Source of the DNA: a virus | Virus genome (UHGV): UHGV-1361255 | Strand: one strand, 5' to 3' | DNA length: 55,716 bases | Part shown: positions 34,700 through 52,871 of the stretch, piece by piece | Position numbering within the stretch: the stretch's first letter is position 1 | Layout: each line of letters starts with the position of its first letter | Translations under genes and position numbers: made by a program | Notes under the pieces: generated by a model | The model's input: the letters and a program-made list of their open reading frames with translations, nothing else | What the model was told of the DNA's origin: nothing | Database searches by the model: none

Positions 34700-35482
34700 T
34701 CAGGAAGAGACGGCAGGAGCCTCTAATTTTGTGGATAAGGCCTCCAGTTTATTGATGGCCAGCTCGAAATGCGCTGGCAGCACCTTCTCCACCTCTGAGC
34801 CAAGGTCGATGATTGATAATTCCTCTCGCGACACACTCCGACGCGCCCCACGAACCACCTCACGCAAAAATTCCCGCTCGTAGGTCCGCATATTGTCCAG
34901 CGCGGTTTCTGCCGACGTTAATATCCGGCGCAACTCGGCAGTGATGGCCGGGAGATCGTCAACCGTAATCGGATTGGGGGATGGATTCCTGCAGGCGCGA
35001 CGTAGCGCCAGCCATACACCACTTTTCCATGCGTTGTGGTACCGAAAACTTTGGGCTATATCGTTTATCAGGCCGCGTAATTCTTCCTTTTGCCGCCAGT
35101 CCAATGGTTCACCGGCGCTTTTTGGCGCGGGTTCGACGTAGCTGTATTCACCGCTTTTCCGAATAGCTGGCAGAACCTCGTTGGTGACCCACTTGCGGAA
35201 CCGCCAGGCCGTCGTTCCCTGCTTCACCGCATCGCGGCAGCGGAGGATCAGAGTGTACAGGCCAGACTCAGAAATAATGGACATGTTAGGATTCCCACGA
35301 TTACCGTCACTTAAAGTTACGGTATTTTTTTCATCATCATCAAGCGATGACAATGCTTTTCGTGAGTTCACTAGTTTCAATGCATCACAGATATCTTTAG
35401 CCACAAACCACGGTTCGCCATTAACCAGAACCACCCGAACGGGGTGGTTTTCCTGAAACGAGAAAACAGATAGTGCGTTCAT
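34700..35482 (-). CDS. BRO-N (KilA-N-like) domain antirepressor-type protein
   Basis: N-terminal ~110 aa fits the Bro-N pattern (VRVVLVNGEPWFVAKDICDAL...LDDDEK...GLYTLILR...WVTNEVLPAIRKSG); start is ATGA-coupled to the upstream 76-aa ORF. Confidence 0.7.
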   Translation of the reverse strand: MNALSVFSFQENHPVRVVLVNGEPWFVAKDICDALKLVNSRKALSSLDDDEKNTVTLSDGNRGNPNMSIISESGLYTLILRCRDAVKQGTTAWRFRKWVTNEVLPAIRKSGEYSYVEPAPKSAGEPLDWRQKEELRGLINDIAQSFRYHNAWKSGVWLALRRACRNPSPNPITVDDLPAITAELRRILTSAETALDNMRTYEREFLREVVRGARRSVSREELSIIDLGSEVEKVLPAHFELAINKLEALSTKLEAPAVSS

Positions 35483-35709
35483 TTGGCCTCCCTGGCGGTC
35501 AGCTGCGCTGACAGAGAGGAAGAACAGCTTCGGGCCTCTTGTACCAGCTCACGGGCAACCTGGAGTAATTCTGCCGCCTCCTGCATATGCAGTGAGGCCT
35601 CGTAACTGGAGATCGTCCGATGGGCGGAGGAAACCAGCGCTTCTATCTGCGCTAGGCGCTCCTCAATCGATTCAAGCAGGCCCTGGGTGTTTAACTGCAC
35701 CTGATTCAT
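35479..35709 (-). CDS. 76-aa helical protein (paralog of 51139..51363)
   Basis: MNQ...GLLESIEE.L.QIEAL... shares about 30% identity with the 74-aa ORF in the second module; translationally coupled on both sides. Confidence 0.5.
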   Translation of the reverse strand: MNQVQLNTQGLLESIEERLAQIEALVSSAHRTISSYEASLHMQEAAELLQVARELVQEARSCSSSLSAQLTAREAK

Positions 35710-35870
35710 GCGGCCACCCCGCTAACCCGGATACGGGCTGACAGAACGAGAACAAAACGGCTGGCGAACTGGCGACGGGCTTCGTGCTCGGATGAGGCGA
35801 TAGTGGACAGATGATGGATATGGGATTTTTTATCGGTACGGCAGATCGCCGCGAACCTGAATTTGAACAT
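35706..35870 (-). CDS. 54-aa small protein (paralog of 50978..51142), icd-like position
   Basis: MFKFRFAAICRTDKKSHIHHLSTIASSEHEARRQ... against MYQFKFAAICRTDRKNNIHHFSTIADSEHAARRQ... in locus 2; stop overlaps the next start (ATGA). Confidence 0.45.
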   Translation of the reverse strand: MFKFRFAAICRTDKKSHIHHLSTIASSEHEARRQFASRFVLVLSARIRVSGVAA

Positions 35871-36039
35871 GGTGCGCACTCCAGTTTGGTTAGAGAGGTG
35901 CTACCACCAGAGTTCCTACGCTCTTTTGAGGGTGGTAGCCCAGACGGGGGTAGGAATACCGGAACCAAACGAGACCGGCCAGCCTTTCGGCTGCCCCGCC
36001 TGAGCCACCATAATTTGGATGCGTACAGGCAAAAGACAC

Positions 36040-36117
36040 AAAAAAACACGCTGGCGCGTGCTGTGCGTCGTTTGGTTAATCGGGTTCCTACGCCCGGCTA
36101 CAGATTTTGCTGCAGCG
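36040..36117 (-). ncRNA. candidate ~78-nt regulatory sRNA (P4 CI / N15 cA-like), locus 1
   Basis: runs from the predicted transcription start 6-7 nt past the -10 to the intrinsic terminator (stem cacgc/gcgtg plus T7 on the minus strand, 36060-36038); contains box A GCGTAGGAAC; a paralogous copy is at 50743-50817. Confidence 0.4.
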
Positions 36118-36122
36118 GGCTA

Positions 36123-36152
36123 ACTTTACCGCCAAAGCGCAACGCACGTCAA
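36123..36152 (-). promoter_or_regulatory. sigma70-like promoter TTGACG-18 bp-TAAAGT (minus strand) driving the locus-1 sRNA/antirepressor operon
   Basis: hexamers and spacing match the locus-2 promoter (TTGACG-18-TAGAGT). Confidence 0.4.
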
Positions 36153-36215
36153 TAAATTACATGGAGATTTTACCCTGTGACCAGTCACGGCGACAGGGGT
36201 TTTTATAGTTTGCTT

Positions 36216-36246
36216 TACTAACTGATCAGAACCTGATCAGTTAGTA
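36216..36246. promoter_or_regulatory. 31-bp inverted repeat tactaactgatcag-aac-ctgatcagttagta with two GATC sites
   Basis: perfect 14-bp arms; lies between the upstream early operon and the locus-1 promoter; no U run, so it is a protein-binding or methylation-sensitive site candidate rather than a terminator. Confidence 0.5.
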
Positions 36247-46092: not shown

Positions 46093-46456
46093 TGAGCACC
46101 TTGACAGGAAATGACGTTTTAGCATTTGCCAAAACGCCTGTGTTTTTATACAGTATATTAATATTTTGTAAGACGAATAACGGGTAGGCTATGTGATGGA
46201 AGATACGGTCCTCTCAAATTGTGAAAGGCTGGACGCTGAGCTGAGTGATATCGATGCCGTATTAGATATGGTATCGGTGGCGATGGCATCCCCGGAGGCC
46301 AGTTTGCATGTGGCTCAAACTATGCGCCTCATTTGTATGTCACGTCGGATGTTGCAGCGGTGCCGGGATCTCAACAAGGTTGAAGGAAGAAGCCACTAGC
46401 CAGCCGAATTGAAAAAGGTGAGGTCTCCCTGACCTTTTACCAGATGCGCCTTATAT

Positions 46457-46486
46457 CCCCGTCCTTCAGGGCGGGGAGGATGTCAA
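46457..46486. repeat. solo copy of the IS605-family right-end-like hairpin motif ccccgtccttcagggcggggaggatgtcaa
   Basis: near-identical (about 33 of 36 nt) to the sequence immediately 3' of tnpB at 52594-52623; abuts the higA stop codon. Confidence 0.4.
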
Positions 46487-46488
46487 GT

Positions 46489-46776
46489 TCAGTATACGGC
46501 CTGGATGTTAATTTCAGCGCCGCACGCTTGTGCGTATTTGCTCAGTGTCTTCATGCTGGCCCCCAACGGGTTCCCCTCGAGGCGGCTAATAGCAGATGGC
46601 GTGATCCCCATCCGCTCCGCCAGGGCAGATTTGCTTAACCCAGCCTTTTCACGCATCTCGTACAGCATTTCGACCAGTGCCAGCTCTTTATCTGCTTCCT
46701 GGTAACCCCGGATTGCCTCCGGGGTGTTGAGCAGACTTTCTTTGACCTGGTTAAATGGGATGCCTTTTACTTTCAT
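46489..46776 (-). CDS. HigA-like HTH (XRE) antitoxin
   Basis: 95 aa with HTH (LSKSALAERMGITPSAISRLE); overlaps the upstream toxin gene. Confidence 0.6.
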   Translation of the reverse strand: MKVKGIPFNQVKESLLNTPEAIRGYQEADKELALVEMLYEMREKAGLSKSALAERMGITPSAISRLEGNPLGASMKTLSKYAQACGAEINIQAVY

Positions 46777-47084
46777 TAGCTCATCTCCTTCAGGCGCTTT
46801 CTCGCTATCTCTATGGCCCCTGCCGGGGTTTTTTGTGTCTTCTTAACAAACGCATGCAGTAGGTAGATTTCGTGGCCGACTGCGTAAGCGTATAACGTTC
46901 TTGCTATGTTTTTGTCTCCAACCCTTAACTCAAAAAGCCCGGCGCCAATTACGCGGCTATGAGGCATTTTTAGTTTTCCTTCACTTTCCAGTCTTTCAAT
47001 CAGTCGGGTCATGCGACCTCGTAACTCGTCCGGTAGTTCCTGTAACTCTTCCAGTGCTGCCGGGTGGGTTATCACGTTAAACAT
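46776..47084 (-). CDS. HigB/RelE-family (Gp49-like) toxin
   Basis: 102 aa; ...ARTLYAYAVGHEIYLLHAFVKKTQKTP... is typical of HigB/Gp49-like toxins; toxin-first higBA order. Confidence 0.6.
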   Translation of the reverse strand: MFNVITHPAALEELQELPDELRGRMTRLIERLESEGKLKMPHSRVIGAGLFELRVGDKNIARTLYAYAVGHEIYLLHAFVKKTQKTPAGAIEIARKRLKEMS

Positions 47085-47484
47085 AGTATATCCTCCCTAT
47101 GTGTTTAAATATACCAATAAATTAATTTTCACACAATAGAGAAATTTAACTAAAAAGTGAAAAATAAGACTGGATGTCTCATGTTGCCAGAGTTACAGTT
47201 CGTGTCGTTGAGACGGGAAACAAACCCGGTAACTAGATGAATTTGGAGGATATTGTGAACTATCAAGGCAACGAAAAAATGAGACAGGACGCGGCTGAGA
47301 TTTCTAACGAACTGTATGAACTCTGGCAAAAAGTGAAGCGTTTCCAGCGTGAGTACAGCTTCAACAGCGAGAACATTACAGACAGACTGGCGGGCCGACT
47401 GATTGGAACAATGGAACCCAAACTGGCCGACCTTAACAGCTTTATGGCCGATGTCGATTACCAGTTTGAAGATTAAAGGGGGAA

Positions 47485-47985: not shown

Positions 47986-49047
47986 ATGAAAAACACTGTG
48001 AAAATAAACAGTGCTGAACTTGTGCATGCAGATTCACTTGAGTACATCAAAACCCTGCCGGACAACAGCTTAGACGCCATCATCACCGACCCACCGTATT
48101 ACCGCGTAAAGGCAAATGCCTGGGATAACCAATGGCCCAGCGTAACGGATTATTTGGCCTGGCTGGATGAGTTTTTCGCCGAGTTCTGGCGAGTGCTTAA
48201 GCCAGCAGGGTCGTTATATGTGTTCTGCGGGCCGAAATTATCATCGGACACTGAGCTGTTGTTACGTGACCGTTTCAACGTGCTGAACCATATCGTTTGG
48301 GCCAAACCCAGCGGGCGCTGGAATGGCGCGCGTAAAGAAGGTTTCCGATCTTATTTTCCGGCCAGTGAGCATATTTTCTTCGCAGAGCATTACGGCGCGG
48401 AAGGCTTTGCTAAAGGCCAGGCTGGGTATGCGACAAAGTGCCAGGAGTTGAAAGGCCAGGTCTTCGAACCGCTTATCGCTTATTTCCGGGATGCTCGCCA
48501 GCGACTTGGTATTTCCGCTGCCGAAATCAACGCGGCAACCGGCACGAAAATGTGTAGCCACTGGTTTAGCGCCAGCCAATGGCAATTGCCCAATGAACGG
48601 CAGTACCTGGCGCTGCAGGCGCTGTTTAACCGTAAGGCCGCAGAGCAGGGAATAACGGGATTGTCAGAGCCGCATGCGGCGCTGCAGGAGGAATACGGCA
48701 CTTTAACGGCGCTATATTCCGAACTGGTTATGCAGTATTCCGAACTGCGACAGCAGTATGAGAATTTGCGGCGCCCTTTCCATGTGACAAAAGATGTTCC
48801 ACACACCAACGTGTGGACGTATCCACCGGTTCCGTACTATCCGGGCAAACACCCATGCGAAAAACCGCTGCAGATGATGCTCGACATCATTTCGGCTTGT
48901 ACGCGCCCTGGCGATGTGATCGCCGACTTTTTTATGGGGTCGGGTGCAACGATAAAAGCCGCGCTGCAGTTAGGACGCGGAGCCATCGGCGTAGAGCTGG
49001 AAGAGGAGCGATTTTTACAGACGGTCTCCGAGATAGAAAAACAATAA
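47986..49047 (+). CDS. DNA N6-adenine/N4-cytosine methyltransferase (beta class)
   Basis: DPPY motif near the N-terminus (DAIITDPPYY) and AdoMet motif near the C-terminus (DFFMGSGAT); ATG at 47986. Confidence 0.75.
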   Translation: MKNTVKINSAELVHADSLEYIKTLPDNSLDAIITDPPYYRVKANAWDNQWPSVTDYLAWLDEFFAEFWRVLKPAGSLYVFCGPKLSSDTELLLRDRFNVLNHIVWAKPSGRWNGARKEGFRSYFPASEHIFFAEHYGAEGFAKGQAGYATKCQELKGQVFEPLIAYFRDARQRLGISAAEINAATGTKMCSHWFSASQWQLPNERQYLALQALFNRKAAEQGITGLSEPHAALQEEYGTLTALYSELVMQYSELRQQYENLRRPFHVTKDVPHTNVWTYPPVPYYPGKHPCEKPLQMMLDIISACTRPGDVIADFFMGSGATIKAALQLGRGAIGVELEEERFLQTVSEIEKQ

Positions 49048-49105
49048 TCAACAGCCTCGCCTAAGTGCGGGGCTTTTTATTACCCGCCACGCGGGTGGCG
49101 GAGTC

Positions 49106-49417
49106 ATGAACACAGCTATCGAATATGGAAATCCTGATCTCTGGCTGGTCTTGCTCATGCTGGCCGCCGGGGTGGTATCAGGCGCCCTGCTTTCCGAAAC
49201 CCCTATCAACCCGCGCCGCCTCATCGGAGACGTTCTGAGAGGCGTAATCGTGGCCATCATCCTCTGGGCTTACGGCGCTATGGGCAACATCTCAATTTTG
49301 AACGTAATCACTCTCGCCGGTTTATCGGCTGTGGCATGGCCACACACCGTCAACGAAATCACCGGCTTTGCAAAACGAACTATCAGCCGAATTTTCGGCG
49401 GGAGAAAAGAACGATGA
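49106..49417 (+). CDS. holin
   Basis: 103 aa with 2-3 TM helices and a charged C-terminus; stop overlaps the next gene start (ATGA). Confidence 0.55.
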   Translation: MNTAIEYGNPDLWLVLLMLAAGVVSGALLSETPINPRRLIGDVLRGVIVAIILWAYGAMGNISILNVITLAGLSAVAWPHTVNEITGFAKRTISRIFGGRKER

Positions 49418-49905
49418 ATTATGGACTGGTGAGCAAGCAAGACGCGCGCCTGTATGCCGAAGCCGTTTGCGATGTGATCGGGCATGGCAAGGCGAATGCA
49501 GCTGTTTTGCTGTGTGTCGAAACGGCCGCAGCCGAGACATTGCTCGGCGATTACAAAGACCCGACGCCGACCAGCGCCGGAACCGGATTAACTCAGGTTG
49601 ATCTCGGTACCTTCGAATGGCTCCGCGATAAGTACAAAAACAGCCGTTATGCCCCGGTACTGCTGAATCAGTTTGGTATCGACCTGAGCCGAACAGTTTA
49701 TGCGGAACTGAGGACCTCGCCGCTGATGGCGATGCTGTTTTGCCGCCTGCGCTATCTGGCGGTTTCAGAGTCGATTCCGGCGACTCGCGAGGCCCGCGCA
49801 GCGTACTGGAAAAAATATTACAACACCTCGGCAGGCAAAGGCACGCCGCAGGATTACATTGATAAATGCCAGCGCGCTGGCGTTGATGCGCTATTCACGC
49901 AGTGA
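49414..49905 (+). CDS. putative endolysin (position-based)
   Basis: 163 aa between the holin and spanin genes; no catalytic motif recognised by eye. Confidence 0.45.
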   Translation: MNYGLVSKQDARLYAEAVCDVIGHGKANAAVLLCVETAAAETLLGDYKDPTPTSAGTGLTQVDLGTFEWLRDKYKNSRYAPVLLNQFGIDLSRTVYAELRTSPLMAMLFCRLRYLAVSESIPATREARAAYWKKYYNTSAGKGTPQDYIDKCQRAGVDALFTQ

Positions 49906-49921
49906 GGCGCGAGGAGTGATT

Positions 49922-50398
49922 ATGAACAGTTTAAAACGTATGGCTAAAGCCTGGTTGCTGATGAATGGTGCCTTCGTCCTTCTTGTGATGGCGACGCAAC
50001 CAGCGATGGCAAATGAGAGCCAGAATCTTGGTTTGGATCTGGATTCAATTCTGAGCGCTCTTCCTGCAGGCTGGGCCAGCGGCGTAACTGCCGTATTTAT
50101 CGTGCTGTATGCGGTGGCGCAGCTGCGCGCCGTACTCCCCCCGTCAGTGACCAAAAGGATTCCCACGGTGGTCATGAAAATTCTCGACCTCGTTGCCGCG
50201 AACTATGCCCACGCCCGGAACGCTGATGCGATCAGCAAAGTTGCGCGGGATGCCGGGAAAGCCAAAGGCCCATCAGATGTTGATTATCGTGTGATGGTGG
50301 AAACGGCCAAAAACAATGGAGAGCTTCGTGGAAGCCGGATTGAGAGTGCTGGCGATTATCCTGGAGATGATCGCCCAGGCAGTAAAAGCCCGCAATGA
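49922..50398 (+). CDS. i-spanin-like protein (N-terminal TM anchor, periplasmic helical domain)
   Basis: 158 aa, N-terminal hydrophobic segment, position after the endolysin. Confidence 0.4.
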   Translation: MNSLKRMAKAWLLMNGAFVLLVMATQPAMANESQNLGLDLDSILSALPAGWASGVTAVFIVLYAVAQLRAVLPPSVTKRIPTVVMKILDLVAANYAHARNADAISKVARDAGKAKGPSDVDYRVMVETAKNNGELRGSRIESAGDYPGDDRPGSKSPQ

Positions 50399-50424
50399 AG
50401 CGGAGCGCCAGGCGAGGATTGAGT

Positions 50425-50643
50425 ATGCGCGTAATAACCCAGCTGATTATCTGCGTCGCTTTGGCCGGGTGCGTGAAATCAACGTCAATGACACCAACAC
50501 TGAATCCGGCTCCGTGCGCAGCGGAAAAGCCGGTGATTGATGTGGTTCACGTCGATGGGCATTTCGTTATCGATGATGACGATATGGGCAAACTGACCGG
50601 CTACATTGCCGCACTGGAAGCGGGCTGCACCGCACAGAAATAA
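50425..50643 (+). CDS. o-spanin-like outer-membrane lipoprotein
   Basis: 72 aa, lipobox LAGC, Pro- and Cys-rich mature part; follows the i-spanin gene (separated arrangement). Confidence 0.5.
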   Translation: MRVITQLIICVALAGCVKSTSMTPTLNPAPCAAEKPVIDVVHVDGHFVIDDDDMGKLTGYIAALEAGCTAQK

Positions 50644-50705
50644 AGTCAACTATAAAAACGACTATCTTCGCGACGGGTCACAGGATAAAGTATCTACGCA
50701 AATGA

Positions 50706-50735
50706 TTGACGTGTGTTGTATGTTGGCGGTAGAGT
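50706..50735 (+). promoter_or_regulatory. sigma70-like promoter TTGACG-18 bp-TAGAGT driving the locus-2 sRNA
   Basis: matches the locus-1 promoter in sequence and spacing. Confidence 0.4.
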
Positions 50736-50742
50736 TACCCCG

Positions 50743-50817
50743 CTGTAGCAAAATCTGCAGCCGGGCGTGAGAACCCGAGAGACAGTCAGCGCACAACACG
50801 CGCTTGCGTGTTTTTTT
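50743..50817 (+). ncRNA. candidate ~76-nt regulatory sRNA (P4 CI / N15 cA-like), locus 2
   Basis: hairpin gctgtagc-aaaat-ctgcagc, box A GCGTGAGAAC (50765-50774), intrinsic terminator cacgcgc-ttg-cgtg plus T7 (50797-50817). Confidence 0.4.
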
Positions 50818-50977
50818 GTGTGTAAATCCTGCGCATACCTGAATTATGGTGGCTCAGGTGGGGCAGCTTTCGGGCTGGCCGGTTGCTGATTGTGCCGGTT
50901 TCTCACCCCCGCCTGGGCTACCACCAATTGAGCGTGAGAACTCTGGTGGTGGCAAAACCATCAATCAGAGGTGAATC

Positions 50978-51142
50978 ATGTATCAGTTCAAATTCGCGGC
51001 GATCTGCCGTACCGACCGTAAAAACAACATTCATCATTTTTCGACTATTGCTGATAGTGAGCATGCAGCGCGCCGCCAGCTTTCCTACAAGTTCGTTCTG
51101 TTTTTCCAGGCACGCCTACCAGTATCGGGAGGTGCAGCATGA
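50978..51142 (+). CDS. 54-aa small protein (paralog of 35706..35870)
   Basis: GAGGTG RBS; stop overlaps the next start (ATGA); not in the ORF track because it is shorter than 60 aa. Confidence 0.45.
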   Translation: MYQFKFAAICRTDRKNNIHHFSTIADSEHAARRQLSYKFVLFFQARLPVSGGAA

Positions 51143-51363
51143 ATCAAATGAAAATGAACGAACATGGACTAGCTGAATCGCTAGAATCTGTACTCTGTCA
51201 GATAGTTGCTTTGCTAAATGTTACCCAGAATGCACTTGATGGAAGTGAAGGTAGCATCTATATGCGAGATGCTGTGCATATGCTTAATGCTGCGCGTAAT
51301 CTGGCCATTGAAGCAGAGCAATACCGATCCGAATGGGAACAACTGATTATTCGCAACCGGTAA
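51139..51363 (+). CDS. 74-aa helical protein (paralog of 35479..35709), C-terminus possibly altered by the tnpB insertion
   Basis: similar to the 76-aa paralog up to about residue 55, then diverges; ends 8 bp before tnpB. Confidence 0.45.
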   Translation: MNQMKMNEHGLAESLESVLCQIVALLNVTQNALDGSEGSIYMRDAVHMLNAARNLAIEAEQYRSEWEQLIIRNR

Positions 51364-51371
51364 GGGATTAT

Positions 51372-52580
51372 ATGTTGAAGCGGCAGGCCTTCAAATTCCA
51401 GCTAAGACCAAATGGTCAGCAGGAGCGCGATATGCGGCGCTTCGCAGGGGCTTGTCGCTTCGTTTTTAACCGCGCGCTGGCATTTCAGAATGAGAACCGT
51501 GAAGCCGGAAACAAATATATTCCCTACACCAAAATGGCTTCATGGCTCATTGAGTGGAAATCCGCACCGGGAACAGCATGGCTGAAAGAAACACCTTCGC
51601 AGCCGTTGCAACAGTCACTGAAAGATCTGGAGCGCAGCTACAAGAATTTCTTCCAGAAACGCGCAGCATTCCCACGGTTTAAAAAGCGCGGGAAAAGTGA
51701 TTCATTCCGCTATCCCCAAGGTGTGAAACTGGAGCAGGGAAACAGCCGAATTTACCTGCCAAAGCTGGGATGGATAGGTTATCGCAACAGCCGTGAAGTC
51801 ATTGGCGAAGTGAAAAACGTCACGGTCAACCAGTCATGCGGTAAATGGTACGTCAGTATCCAGACGGAATACGAAGTGGCTGCCCCCGCTCACCATGCAA
51901 AGTCAATGGTCGGGTTGGATGCCGGAGTCACGAAACTCGCCACGCTTTCAGATGGCACGGTATACCATCCAGTCAACAGCTTTAAAGCAAACCAGCGCAA
52001 GCTGGCAAAGCTCCAGAGGCAGTTAAGCCGCAAAGTTAAATTCAGTGCCAACTGGCAGAAACAGAAGAAAAAAATCCAGCGTCTGCACTCGCACATTGCC
52101 AATATTCGGCGCGACTACCTTCACAAAGTCACCAGTGAGATCAGCAAAAACCACGCAATGATCGTTGTTGAGGATTTGAAGGTAAGTAACATGTCGAAAT
52201 CGGCAAAAGGCACGGCAGAACAGCCTGGACGAAACGTCAGAGCTAAATCAGGCCTGAACCGTTCGATACTGGATCAGGGCTGGTATGAAATGCGTCGTCA
52301 GCTGGAGTACAAGCAACTCTGGCGTGGTGGTCAGGTACTGGTAGCTCCGCCAGCATACACGAGCCAACGTTGCGCCTGCTGTGGTCATACAGCGAAAGAG
52401 AACCGCCTGTCACAAAGTAAATTTGTATGTCAGGTATGCGGCTACACAACGAACGCCGATATCAACGGTGCTCGTAACATTTTAGCGGCAGGACATGCCG
52501 TGCTTGCCTGTGGAGGGATGGTGCAGTCAGGCCGCCCGTTGAAGCAGGAACCCATCGAGGTGATTCAGACGTCAGTCTGA
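51372..52580 (+). CDS. tnpB: TnpB (OrfB) RNA-guided endonuclease of an IS200/IS605-family element
   Basis: 402 aa from the ATG at 51372 ([17 protein letters not shown]); RuvC motifs GLDAGV, IVVEDLK and [10 protein letters not shown] with a CxxC...CxxC zinc finger, all intact. Confidence 0.85.
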
Positions 52581-52593
52581 ACGCGGTAGGAAT

Positions 52594-52623
52594 CCCCGTC
52601 CTTTAGGGCGGGGAGGATGTCAA
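52594..52623. repeat. IS605-family right-end-like imperfect hairpin ccccgtcctttagggcggggaggatgtcaa
   Basis: 14 bp after the tnpB stop; a second copy is at 46457-46486. Confidence 0.45.
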
Positions 52624-52668
52624 ATTGCTGGTCCGATGACAGGTCGCATAGCGGCAAAATTGAGACCG

Positions 52669-52684
52669 TGCGACCACGGTCGCA
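52669..52684. promoter_or_regulatory. F-sopC-like 16-bp inverted repeat tgcgaccacggtcgca
   Basis: part of a ~48-bp repeat unit aggtcgcatagcRgcaaaat...tgcgaccacggtcgcac that recurs 154 bp downstream. Confidence 0.55.
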
Positions 52685-52822
52685 CAGGCCAAGAACCGGT
52701 ATCCCCATTTAGGGATAAATCGTGTTCTATCCCTACAAAGGGATAAAACCCGGCCACAGTAGAGTGCAAGGTTGCCCCGCAATGCCCTATCCATAGGTCG
52801 CATAGCAGCAAAATAGAAGCCA

Positions 52823-52838
52823 TGCGACCACGGTCGCA
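52823..52838. promoter_or_regulatory. F-sopC-like 16-bp inverted repeat tgcgaccacggtcgca
   Basis: second copy of the 48-bp unit (52795-52843); an 8-bp stem hairpin tagggata/tatcccta lies between the two copies. Confidence 0.55.
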
Positions 52839-52871
52839 CGGGTCAGTGAATCAACAAGAAGATGAATAAAA

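Follow-up and report, generated by a model that had tools for sequence, protein, structure and literature searches.

The c4 RNA of phage P1 is cut from the leader of its own operon, and its a′ and b′ boxes are matched twice, by a1b1 upstream and by a2b2 near the ribosome-binding site (RBS) of icd. RNase P releases this C4 RNA from the leader, it represses in trans, and a few box bases set the specificity that makes P1 and P7 hetero-immune. The immI system of P1 and P7, with its c4 antisense RNA, icd and ant, is said to have been described by Citron and Schuster in 1990, and the immA locus of N15, reportedly described by Ravin et al. in 1999, comprises cA RNA, icd, antA and antB. P4 immunity uses a CI RNA whose seqB targets seqA and seqC, the outcome being premature termination of the replication operon. 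TnpB of IS200/IS605 insertion sequences (IS), ISDra2 among them, reportedly works with an omega RNA, as Karvelis in 2021, Altae-Tran in 2021 and Meers in 2023 are said to have described, and the TldR proteins, reportedly introduced by Wiegand et al. in 2024, are nuclease-dead TnpB-like RNA-guided repressors. Here we analyze UHGV virus genome UHGV-1361255, a stretch of 55,716 nt (the window) that by sequence comparison is essentially the K. pneumoniae plasmid pRHBSTW-00113_4, a phiKO2-like phage-plasmid, and in which a C4-type switch occurs twice, once in the resident immA locus on the minus strand (locus 1) and once at 50640-51363 on the plus strand (locus 2). We consider it likely that locus 2 is a complete second C4/IsrK antisense switch, with a specificity other than that of immA, which stands at the front of a ~2-kb cassette and gates a tnpB gene.

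In Gifsy-1, the short RNA IsrK activates its own read-through mRNA, orf45 is translationally coupled to anrP, and a processed CI-like RNA (STnc1160) lies downstream of IsrK; IsrK and the CI-like RNA have been equated with seqA, CI and seqC of P4, and Hfq-dependent trans-activation by IsrK is known for Gifsy-1 only (PMC4825925). As RNA, locus 2 belongs, by its covariance-model matches, to this known C4/IsrK family. Both loci exceed the Rfam gathering scores for C4 and isrK (Table 1), locus 1 has a match to c4-a1b1 as well (46.8 bits), and the C4 of locus 2 has a tRNA-like closing stem and an ACCACCA 3′ end that can be seen in the sequence. Every feature that the earlier note, made from the letters alone, had described at locus 2 was recovered: a consensus scan placed the promoter TTGACG-18-TAGAGT at 50706-50735, with no other plus-strand promoter-like site between 50600 and 52800; the match to the isrK model extends to 50816, at a terminator consisting of a hairpin and a T-run, from which a short RNA is predicted; the hairpin series is that of locus 1, with C4 and isrK matches in both; and the two small open reading frames (ORFs), of 54 and 74 aa, lie where the note had put them and overlap as ATGA. 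Some points had to be revised. The note had made the ~76-nt RNA the small RNA of the switch; because Rfam places isrK there and C4 on box B, that RNA is better read as the IsrK-type leader carrying box A, and the repressor would be the C4 RNA at 50842-50928. The TTCTCAC box is where it had been placed (50900-50906), whereas both GTGAGAA boxes lie one base further left (50767-50773 and 50934-50940). The small ORFs, finally, are not the end of the locus, as the operon runs on into TnpB at 51372-52580.

Reverse-complemented, 35479-36246 aligns to 50640-51363 with 457 of 724 positions identical (63%, vs the two-thirds that had been estimated by eye). By segment, identity is 81% in the IsrK part, 80% in the C4 part, 64% in icd and 46% in DNA between orf74 and its locus 1 counterpart orf76. 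The proteins are homologous, as had been proposed, the 54-aa pair sharing 65% of residues and orf74 sharing ~42%, over its first 59 aa, with close homologues of orf76 in related loci. Hairpin 1 of C4 keeps its stem and exchanges its loop, GAAA in locus 1 for UUCG in locus 2, the swap to which the note had drawn attention. Locus 1 itself is the canonical immA locus: it shares 78% of positions with N15 immA, 90% with phiKO2 and 99% with the Klebsiella phage KpLi5.

We aligned 29 distinct modules drawn from IMG/VR and PLSDB. The coordinated changes in the b boxes persist across this set: boxes A (b1) and B (b′) are 92.6% paired and boxes B and C (b2) 100%, five of the seven positions are changed on both sides in A-B as well as in B-C, and sliding the partner leaves 21-58% paired. 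The sequences of these boxes define at least eight b classes (GTAGGAA, GTGAGAA, TTCGCAA, TTCTCAA, TTGGAAC, GTGACAA, TTGGCGT and TTGACGT). These three boxes, which the note had treated as the whole set, are joined by a second co-varying set, in which the loop of C4 hairpin 2 (a′) complements both a1, in the linker of the leader RNA, and a2, at the Shine-Dalgarno (SD) sequence of icd. The a boxes fall into at least seven classes, and the contiguous duplex averages 8.2 bp (a1) and 7.5 bp (a2) for cognate combinations vs 5.8 and 6.0 bp for non-cognate ones. None of 500 shuffles reached the b-box score and none of 2000 permutations the observed a-box sum, and since both controls are blind to relatedness, these figures are not probabilities; more weight attaches to how many independent classes of box there are. 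The a and b classes combine in many ways, a2 lies against the icd SD in homologues in the same arrangement, and the strand between b2 and a2 (50944-50953) is invariant in the alignment. The analogy with the hetero-immune c4 RNAs of P1 and P7 drawn in the earlier note holds for the Rfam family and for the a1b1/a′b′/a2b2 logic.

The two switches of the window carry different keys. The Ant module at locus 1 combines CCAAACGA (a) with GTAGGAA (b), its a′, a1 and a2 boxes being TCGTTTGG, CCAAACGA and AACCAAAC, and the TnpB module at locus 2 combines CAGTCAGC with GTGAGAA. Each a′ loop pairs with its own a1 over 9-10 bp and its own a2 over 7 bp, and with the boxes of the other locus over 3-6 bp. For the b boxes, local duplexes of b′ with the IsrK loop are predicted to gain 6-7 kcal/mol when the combination is cognate. 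Duplex predictions for whole C4 and leader RNAs were set aside: conserved flanks dominate them and they discriminate poorly, so only local box duplexes are quoted here. In an independent lineage, the K. pneumoniae plasmid NZ_CP033624.1, the b keys are swapped between the two modules, GTGAGAA serving the Ant module and GTAGGAA, together with CTAAGTGG as the a box, serving the TnpB module; this supports orthogonality. Co-resident modules are differently keyed in both of the true two-module cases, from which we infer that the locus 2 and immA switches are orthogonal. Several other genomes with two apparent copies were rejected as true paralogues and left out of the evidence: the Escherichia phage YDC107_1 (CP025712.1, 32.9-40.8 kb), the E. 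coli plasmid CP088562.1, and, in IMG/VR, L040/L061, L075/L078, L019/L022 and L112. In YDC107_1, CP088562.1 and these IMG/VR loci the copies are inverted duplications around the telomere and the immA-protelomerase region; in such N15-like records they most likely represent assembly read-through of the hairpin telomere, which mimics a second module, and one of the palindromic records is error-ridden.

Downstream of the small ORFs, the 402-aa TnpB carries the Pfam domains HTH_OrfB_IS605, OrfB_IS605 and Cas12f1-like_TNB, aligns to ISDra2 TnpB (8EXA / 8BF8) with an E value of 1.8e-55, and retains the RuvC D-E-D residues and the zinc-ribbon CxxC pairs. It is followed by an IS right end with the hairpin CCCCGTCC-TTTA-GGGCGGGG and the terminus ...GGATGTCAA. 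The 80 ordinary relatives of this TnpB that we found in GTDB genomes (45-88% identical) are standard IS copies; those inspected have a divergent tnpA, a left end beside TTTAT and the same right end as the window. Their homology to the window begins 12 nt inside tnpB and stops at 52623 or only a few bases away from it. Because the ordinary copies carry both a left end and tnpA and the homology starts inside tnpB, the switch, icd and the antA-like ORF seem to have replaced the left end and tnpA, and the gated operon would therefore end in tnpB and the right end (omega RNA). No left end or tnpA was found in the window or in the related records L001, L003 (NZ_CP033624.1) and L106, and a search upstream of the module for a left end was negative in these four and in L068, L086 and L024. 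Only in L002, a 378-kb IncU conjugative plasmid of Raoultella, does an LE-like stretch, a possible remnant of the IS left end, lie just upstream of the module promoter.

The boundaries of the cassette can be drawn against relatives that lack it. N15, phiKO2, PY54, KpLi5 and 48ST307 have one module each and no locus 2, which also answers how many N15 and phiKO2 carry, a question that the earlier note had raised. The empty site of Klebsiella phage 48ST307 aligns to 49000-50646 and again from 52642 on; the cassette, 50647-52623, displaces the 5′ part of the DUF4406 gene of sibling phage-plasmids, of which the window lacks ~250 bp (52643|52644). The nearest relatives of locus 2 are in other plasmids: L002 matches 50734-52623 at 87% identity, vs 63% between locus 2 and locus 1. 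L003 carries its switch-tnpB unit elsewhere, with terS on one side and terL on the other. The evidence together indicates that locus 2 is the front end of a horizontally acquired ~2-kb cassette and not a duplication of locus 1, so that the earlier reading stands where it sees a further c4/cA-type module that looks functional, and fails where it assumes duplication. The occurrence of the cassette is evidence that a ~2-kb piece of DNA has passed between large conjugative plasmids and phage-plasmids of Klebsiella.

Some further observations concern the cassette's surroundings. Window-type and L001-type plasmids share the left cassette junction (50646/50647; ~4007 in L001) and differ in the right one (52623/52624; ~5985 in L001), each right junction being exactly 3′ of TTTAT in the empty allele, though neither copy has a left end. 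A RelE/ParE-HTH toxin-antitoxin pair at 46473-47167 is 96% identical to L002 3186-3880, directly upstream of the IncU c4-tnpB cassette, and the window and the IncU plasmid therefore share two separate pieces. A 46-bp miniature element at 46441-46486, preceded by a TAM-like TTTAC (46436-46440; TAM, transposon-adjacent motif), opens with ~36 nt from the start of the IS left end (CAGATGCGCC...CCCCGTCCTTCAGGGCGGGG), to which a hairpin common to both ends connects the final 10 nt of the right end (AGGATGTCAA), and it looks like a PATE/MITE-like derivative (palindrome-associated or miniature inverted-repeat transposable element) of the IS family of the cassette tnpB. The right end includes, at 52585-52593, GGTAGGAAT, nine nucleotides that complement the b′ box region in the C4 of locus 1. 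This motif is ancestral in ordinary IS copies, with ~0.4 chance matches expected in the window; in the IncU plasmid it is the cassette's own C4 that bears the key complemented by GGTAGGAAT.

The fusion of switch and tnpB recurs. We distinguish type 1, the TnpB lineage of the window, from type 2, a second lineage that is 33% identical to type 1 and is also catalytically intact. The full junction is present in 15 PLSDB records, eight of them phage-plasmids and seven large conjugative plasmids, and ~876 more have tnpB alone. Type-1 units carry three b classes and type-2 units two. The tnpB gene starts 8 nt past orf74 in type 1, and in type 2 it overlaps the small ORF or starts 2 nt past it. Among relatives of the type-2 TnpB that are at least 53% identical, the module lies upstream in 7/7 from IMG/VR and 5/5 from metagenomes (the sets overlap); it was found in none of 15 at 39% identity or less and none of 75 at 45% or less. 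Ratios of nonsynonymous to synonymous substitution rates (dN/dS) range over 0.05-0.28 in icd and 0.04-0.25 in the antA-like ORF and are ~0.1 in tnpB, so all three genes are under purifying selection. A neighbor-joining tree of type-1 TnpB is too shallow to tell whether the C4-linked copies are monophyletic; they begin with MLKRQAF, vs MKRL in the ordinary copies inspected, and this shared N-terminus suggests a single type-1 fusion event. The switch as a general trait of the type-1 TnpB clade was considered and excluded, as none of the 80 GTDB loci has it.

We propose the following working of locus 2. The promoter at 50706 would fire, and most transcripts would end at the terminator, giving a ~75-nt IsrK-like RNA; read-through transcripts would be processed so that C4 is freed. 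Its a′ and b′ boxes would then pair with a2, at the SD, and b2 of the read-through mRNA and block translation of icd, and the antA-like ORF and tnpB would be shut off too, through translational coupling and polarity. The IsrK-like RNA, whose a1 and b1 mimic the target, could titrate C4 and thereby turn the operon on. Most likely, then, the switch keeps TnpB off unless C4 is absent or titrated, and TnpB would be made only after the element reaches a naive cell or while leader RNA builds up. As the boxes differ, the immA C4 would not silence the cassette, nor the cassette C4 immA. In the minimum free energy (MFE) fold of the leader, b1-b′ and a1-a′ are paired in cis (z-score -5.3), and the centroid is the free C4 fold; given the cis-paired MFE structure and a strand at 50944-50953 that would compete for the C4 closing stem, alternative structures like those of the IsrK paper are plausible.

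A number of observations weigh against this proposal. Within the data set the fusion looks like a rare derived state, since none of the 80 ordinary relatives has the module and 15 of 891 PLSDB tnpB records have the fusion. In the type-2 relative L214, ~1 kb separates orf74 from tnpB, with the module still upstream. Seven large conjugative plasmids, L002 (4253-4636) among them, have a frameshift in icd past ~residue 31, and the reading frame continues into the antA-like ORF to give a fusion of 127 aa; the leader is still translated and the Icd protein is lost, so the protein itself would be dispensable there. At locus 2, b2 lies 28 nt upstream of the icd SD, which a2 alone touches. The two b boxes of the window differ at just two of seven positions and whole-RNA duplexes discriminate poorly, so that partial cross-talk between the two loci is possible, and the difference in keys within a genome is based on two independent lineages only. 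The guide of the window copy differs from all 11 empty sites at two of 20 positions. C4 processing, icd repression and co-transcription of tnpB, lastly, are predicted from homology and gene spacing.

Three other explanations were weighed against a switch that gates tnpB. One is that the cassette is an additional immunity key, whose C4 silences in trans the Ant operon of hetero-immune relatives with GTGAGAA, or whose payload is the antA-like protein, tnpB merely hitch-hiking or mobilizing the unit. C4-type RNAs do act in trans in P1 and P7, sibling Ant modules with b GTGAGAA exist (L012, L027, L033, L083 and NZ_CP033624.1), and the antA-like ORF is under purifying selection. No sampled Ant-linked module, however, joins b GTGAGAA to the a class of locus 2 (CAGTCAGC / CAATCAGC), so just one of the two boxes would match; the cassette persists in conjugative plasmids, which offer no context of phage immunity; tnpB is itself under purifying selection with its catalytic residues intact; and it would go unexplained why two TnpB lineages came to be fused to the switch. 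We regard this explanation as unlikely.

The second explanation, that a TnpB IS happened to truncate a second immA-type locus and left the switch as a decaying remnant which does not regulate TnpB, we hold to be quite unlikely. TnpB elements are abundant enough for such an accident (891 PLSDB records with tnpB for 15 with the fusion), the window lacks the left end and tnpA, and the miniature element joining left and right ends at 46441-46486 could be cited in its favor. Against this stands the absence of any left end between orf74 and tnpB, genes that are 8 nt apart or, in other units, overlap. The same precise fusion is found in two TnpB lineages with at least four box classes; from 53% identity upward, the module accompanies the entire type-2 clade; promoter, terminator and Rfam scores match locus 1 in quality; and the ORFs are intact with dN/dS far below 1. 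Plain paralogy, in which locus 2 would be a duplicated and diverged immA serving as a second, orthogonal anti-immunity layer of N15-like phage-plasmids, is very unlikely: it would account for the shared architecture at 63% identity, the retained antA-like ORF and the ~90 bp ahead of the promoter (50647-50741) that also resemble the locus 1 upstream region, but not for the absence of locus 2 from N15, phiKO2, PY54, KpLi5 and 48ST307, the precise insertion boundaries against the empty site, the far closer copies on unrelated replicons (87% in IncU conjugative plasmids), a cargo of TnpB and IS right end with no BRO antirepressor, or the unit at the terS/terL site of NZ_CP033624.1.

What a gated TnpB would be used for is a separate matter. 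A tentative extension of the gating proposal, to which we give well below even odds, is that the antisense switch was recruited at least twice independently to gate an active nuclease on phage-plasmids and conjugative plasmids, and that a burst of TnpB, upon entry into a cell without the cognate C4 or upon titration of C4 by the IsrK-like RNA, cuts the empty allele of resident siblings, for homing or exclusion; at other times TnpB would be silent, and orthogonal boxes would insulate it from immA. From ordinary IS copies and empty sites the TAM is inferred to be TTTAT, and the 20 nt past the right end, the would-be guide, follow TTTAT in 11 empty-site loci (10 IMG/VR stretches and 48ST307) with two mismatches. 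These fall at guide positions 9 and 18 in all 11, which weakens a homing role for the window copy, and homing by the window's own TnpB was set aside as weak. The L001-type guide, by comparison, matches the empty allele with its TTTAT TAM at 20 of 20 positions. Homing or exclusion of sibling elements by TnpB is accordingly possible, and not supported for the window copy. If the extension is true, mobile elements would make entry-triggered use of an RNA-guided nuclease.

Two observations on type-2 right ends belong beside the guide. In L003 (5990-6140), a duplicate of the opening 16 nt of terL (ATGGCCGCATATCCAA) comes after the right end, and a 120-bp stretch that holds a terminator and a new RBS separates it from the real terL, which is preceded by AAGTC and not GGATC; because the right end adjoins this copy, the guide of the L003 TnpB would match the terL start of sibling phage-plasmids. 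In L068, L086 and L024, the terminal ~26-30 nt of the right end (GGTTAAYCC..GCGGGCGGGG.TAGGTCG) occur two or three times ~170-330 nt past the tnpB stop, with ~31-nt unique spacers in between, an arrangement that resembles repeat-spacer-repeat.

More broadly, a putative tnpB-gating switch in two lineages makes it directly testable how TnpB expression is restrained and timed in nature. The C4/IsrK module can be viewed as a portable cassette, whose cargos in our data set are BRO antirepressors, P4-type primase, TnpB and small proteins. With at least eight b classes and at least seven a classes, and two keys on one replicon, these modules are also a candidate set of orthogonal riboregulators. Cargos other than Ant and TnpB behind the switch comprise a P4-type alpha primase (L015, L105), a 134-aa protein without Pfam match (L052) and an 87-aa protein (L114).

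Table 1. Features of the two C4/IsrK-type loci in the window and of the cassette at locus 2
Feature	Coordinates	Strand	Details
Acquired cassette (as interpreted here)	50647..52623	+	1,977 bp; switch, icd, antA-like ORF, tnpB, IS right end
Sigma-70-like promoter	50706..50735	+	TTGACG-18-TAGAGT; consensus scan
IsrK / P4-seqA-type leader RNA	50742..50816	+	Rfam RF01394, 67.1 bits vs cut-off 50
b1 box	50767-50773	+	GTGAGAA; loop of IsrK-type RNA hairpin 2
a1 box	50783-50790	+	CAGTCAGC; linker of IsrK-type leader RNA
Intrinsic terminator	50795-50812 (hairpin)	+	hairpin and T-run; ends IsrK-type leader RNA
C4 antisense RNA	50842..50928	+	Rfam RF01695, 79.8 bits vs cut-off 45, model positions 1-87 of 87
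a′ box	50885-50892	+	GCTGATTG; loop of C4 hairpin 2
b′ box	50900-50906	+	TTCTCAC; 3′ junction of C4
Target leader	50934..50973	+	holds b2, conserved strand and a2
b2 box	50934-50940	+	GTGAGAA; just 3′ of C4
Conserved strand	50944-50953	+	TGGTGGTGGC; can pair with 3′ strand of C4 closing stem
a2 box	50962-50968	+	CAATCAG; overlaps first base of icd SD
icd SD	50968-50971	+	GAGG
Icd-like leader ORF	50978..51142	+	54 aa; phrog_1743, E 2.6e-19
AntA-like ORF (orf74)	51139..51363	+	74 aa; phrog_10889 'anti-repressor', E 1.4e-23; start overlaps icd stop (ATGA)
TnpB	51372..52580	+	402 aa; starts 8 nt past orf74 stop
IS200/IS605-type right end	52581..52623	+	43 nt; presumed 3′ part of omega-RNA scaffold
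Flank, would-be TnpB guide	52624..52643	+	ATTGCTGGTCCGATGACAGG; DUF4406 gene remnant
Locus 1, resident immA switch	35928..36116	-	b = GTAGGAA, a = CCAAACGA
Locus 1 C4	35928-36015	-	Rfam 76.9 bits vs cut-off 45
Locus 1 IsrK-like RNA	36041-36116	-	Rfam 70.1 bits vs cut-off 50
Locus 1 cargo	34700..35870	-	icd 35706-35870, antA-like orf76 35479-35709, BRO-N antirepressor 34700-35482

In and around the cassette we noted a few further features. A promoter-like TTGAAG-16-TATAAT (10 of 12 matches) lies on the minus strand at 51394-51367, at the start of tnpB and directed into orf74 and icd; sites of this kind are just as frequent in the region as expected by chance. Just 3′ of the cassette there are a 51-nt direct repeat, 86% identical, at 52641-52691 and 52795-52845 with the palindrome GCGACCACGGTCGC, and, at 52700-52747, a pair of 20-nt TATCCC...GGGATAAA hairpins. 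A window-wide search for GTGAGAA and CAATCAG sites as extra trans targets found none near another RBS or in tnpB.

Set beside the described systems, locus 2 shares with P1/P7 immI the RNA family (RF01695, RF03163), the box logic and an icd-like leader ORF that is, by prediction here, translationally coupled to the cargo; it differs in its cargo, TnpB where immI has Ant, in the presence of two differently keyed modules on one replicon, and in the terminator after a1/b1. Locus 1 corresponds to N15 immA and to gp27-30 of phiKO2, and locus 2 keeps the same order of promoter, leader RNA, C4, icd and antA, with its small ORF taken to be a homologue of N15 AntA from its phrog_10889 match and from the icd-antA-antB gene order of N15 (PMC4488713). 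N15 immA, in contrast, continues with antB (BRO), whereas locus 2 lies elsewhere on the genome, has other boxes, and goes from icd and the antA-like ORF straight to tnpB; because it has no BRO antirepressor, locus 2 would not count as an immI/immA operon, and locus 1 would. P4 is alike in its three-copy box logic and its leader-processed RNA, with 82% DNA similarity over ~200 nt to the P4 cI region, and in the P4 relatives L015 and L105 the module gates an alpha primase, in place of the icd, antA-like ORF and tnpB of locus 2. With Gifsy-1 IsrK (Hershko-Shalev et al. 2016, PMC4825925) the locus shares the Rfam isrK match, the cargo there being AnrP, leading to AntQ. A search of the literature, with most subscription journals outside its reach, found no paper that ties TnpB to c4, Icd, IsrK or phage-plasmid immunity. 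The cassette resembles IS200/IS605 elements in its full-length D-E-D TnpB, right-end hairpin and TCAA-type terminus, the omega RNA here being predicted, and differs from them in that tnpB lies in an operon behind a phage antisense switch; since both the left end and tnpA are missing from the window, the cassette would not be an IS200/IS605 element by definition. TldR offers a parallel in that a TnpB has been drawn from a transposon into the regulatory context of a host or mobile element, but the cassette TnpB is full length with a recognizable right end and, with its nuclease residues intact, is not a TldR. What appears to be new here is what the second switch controls, a TnpB instead of an antirepressor.

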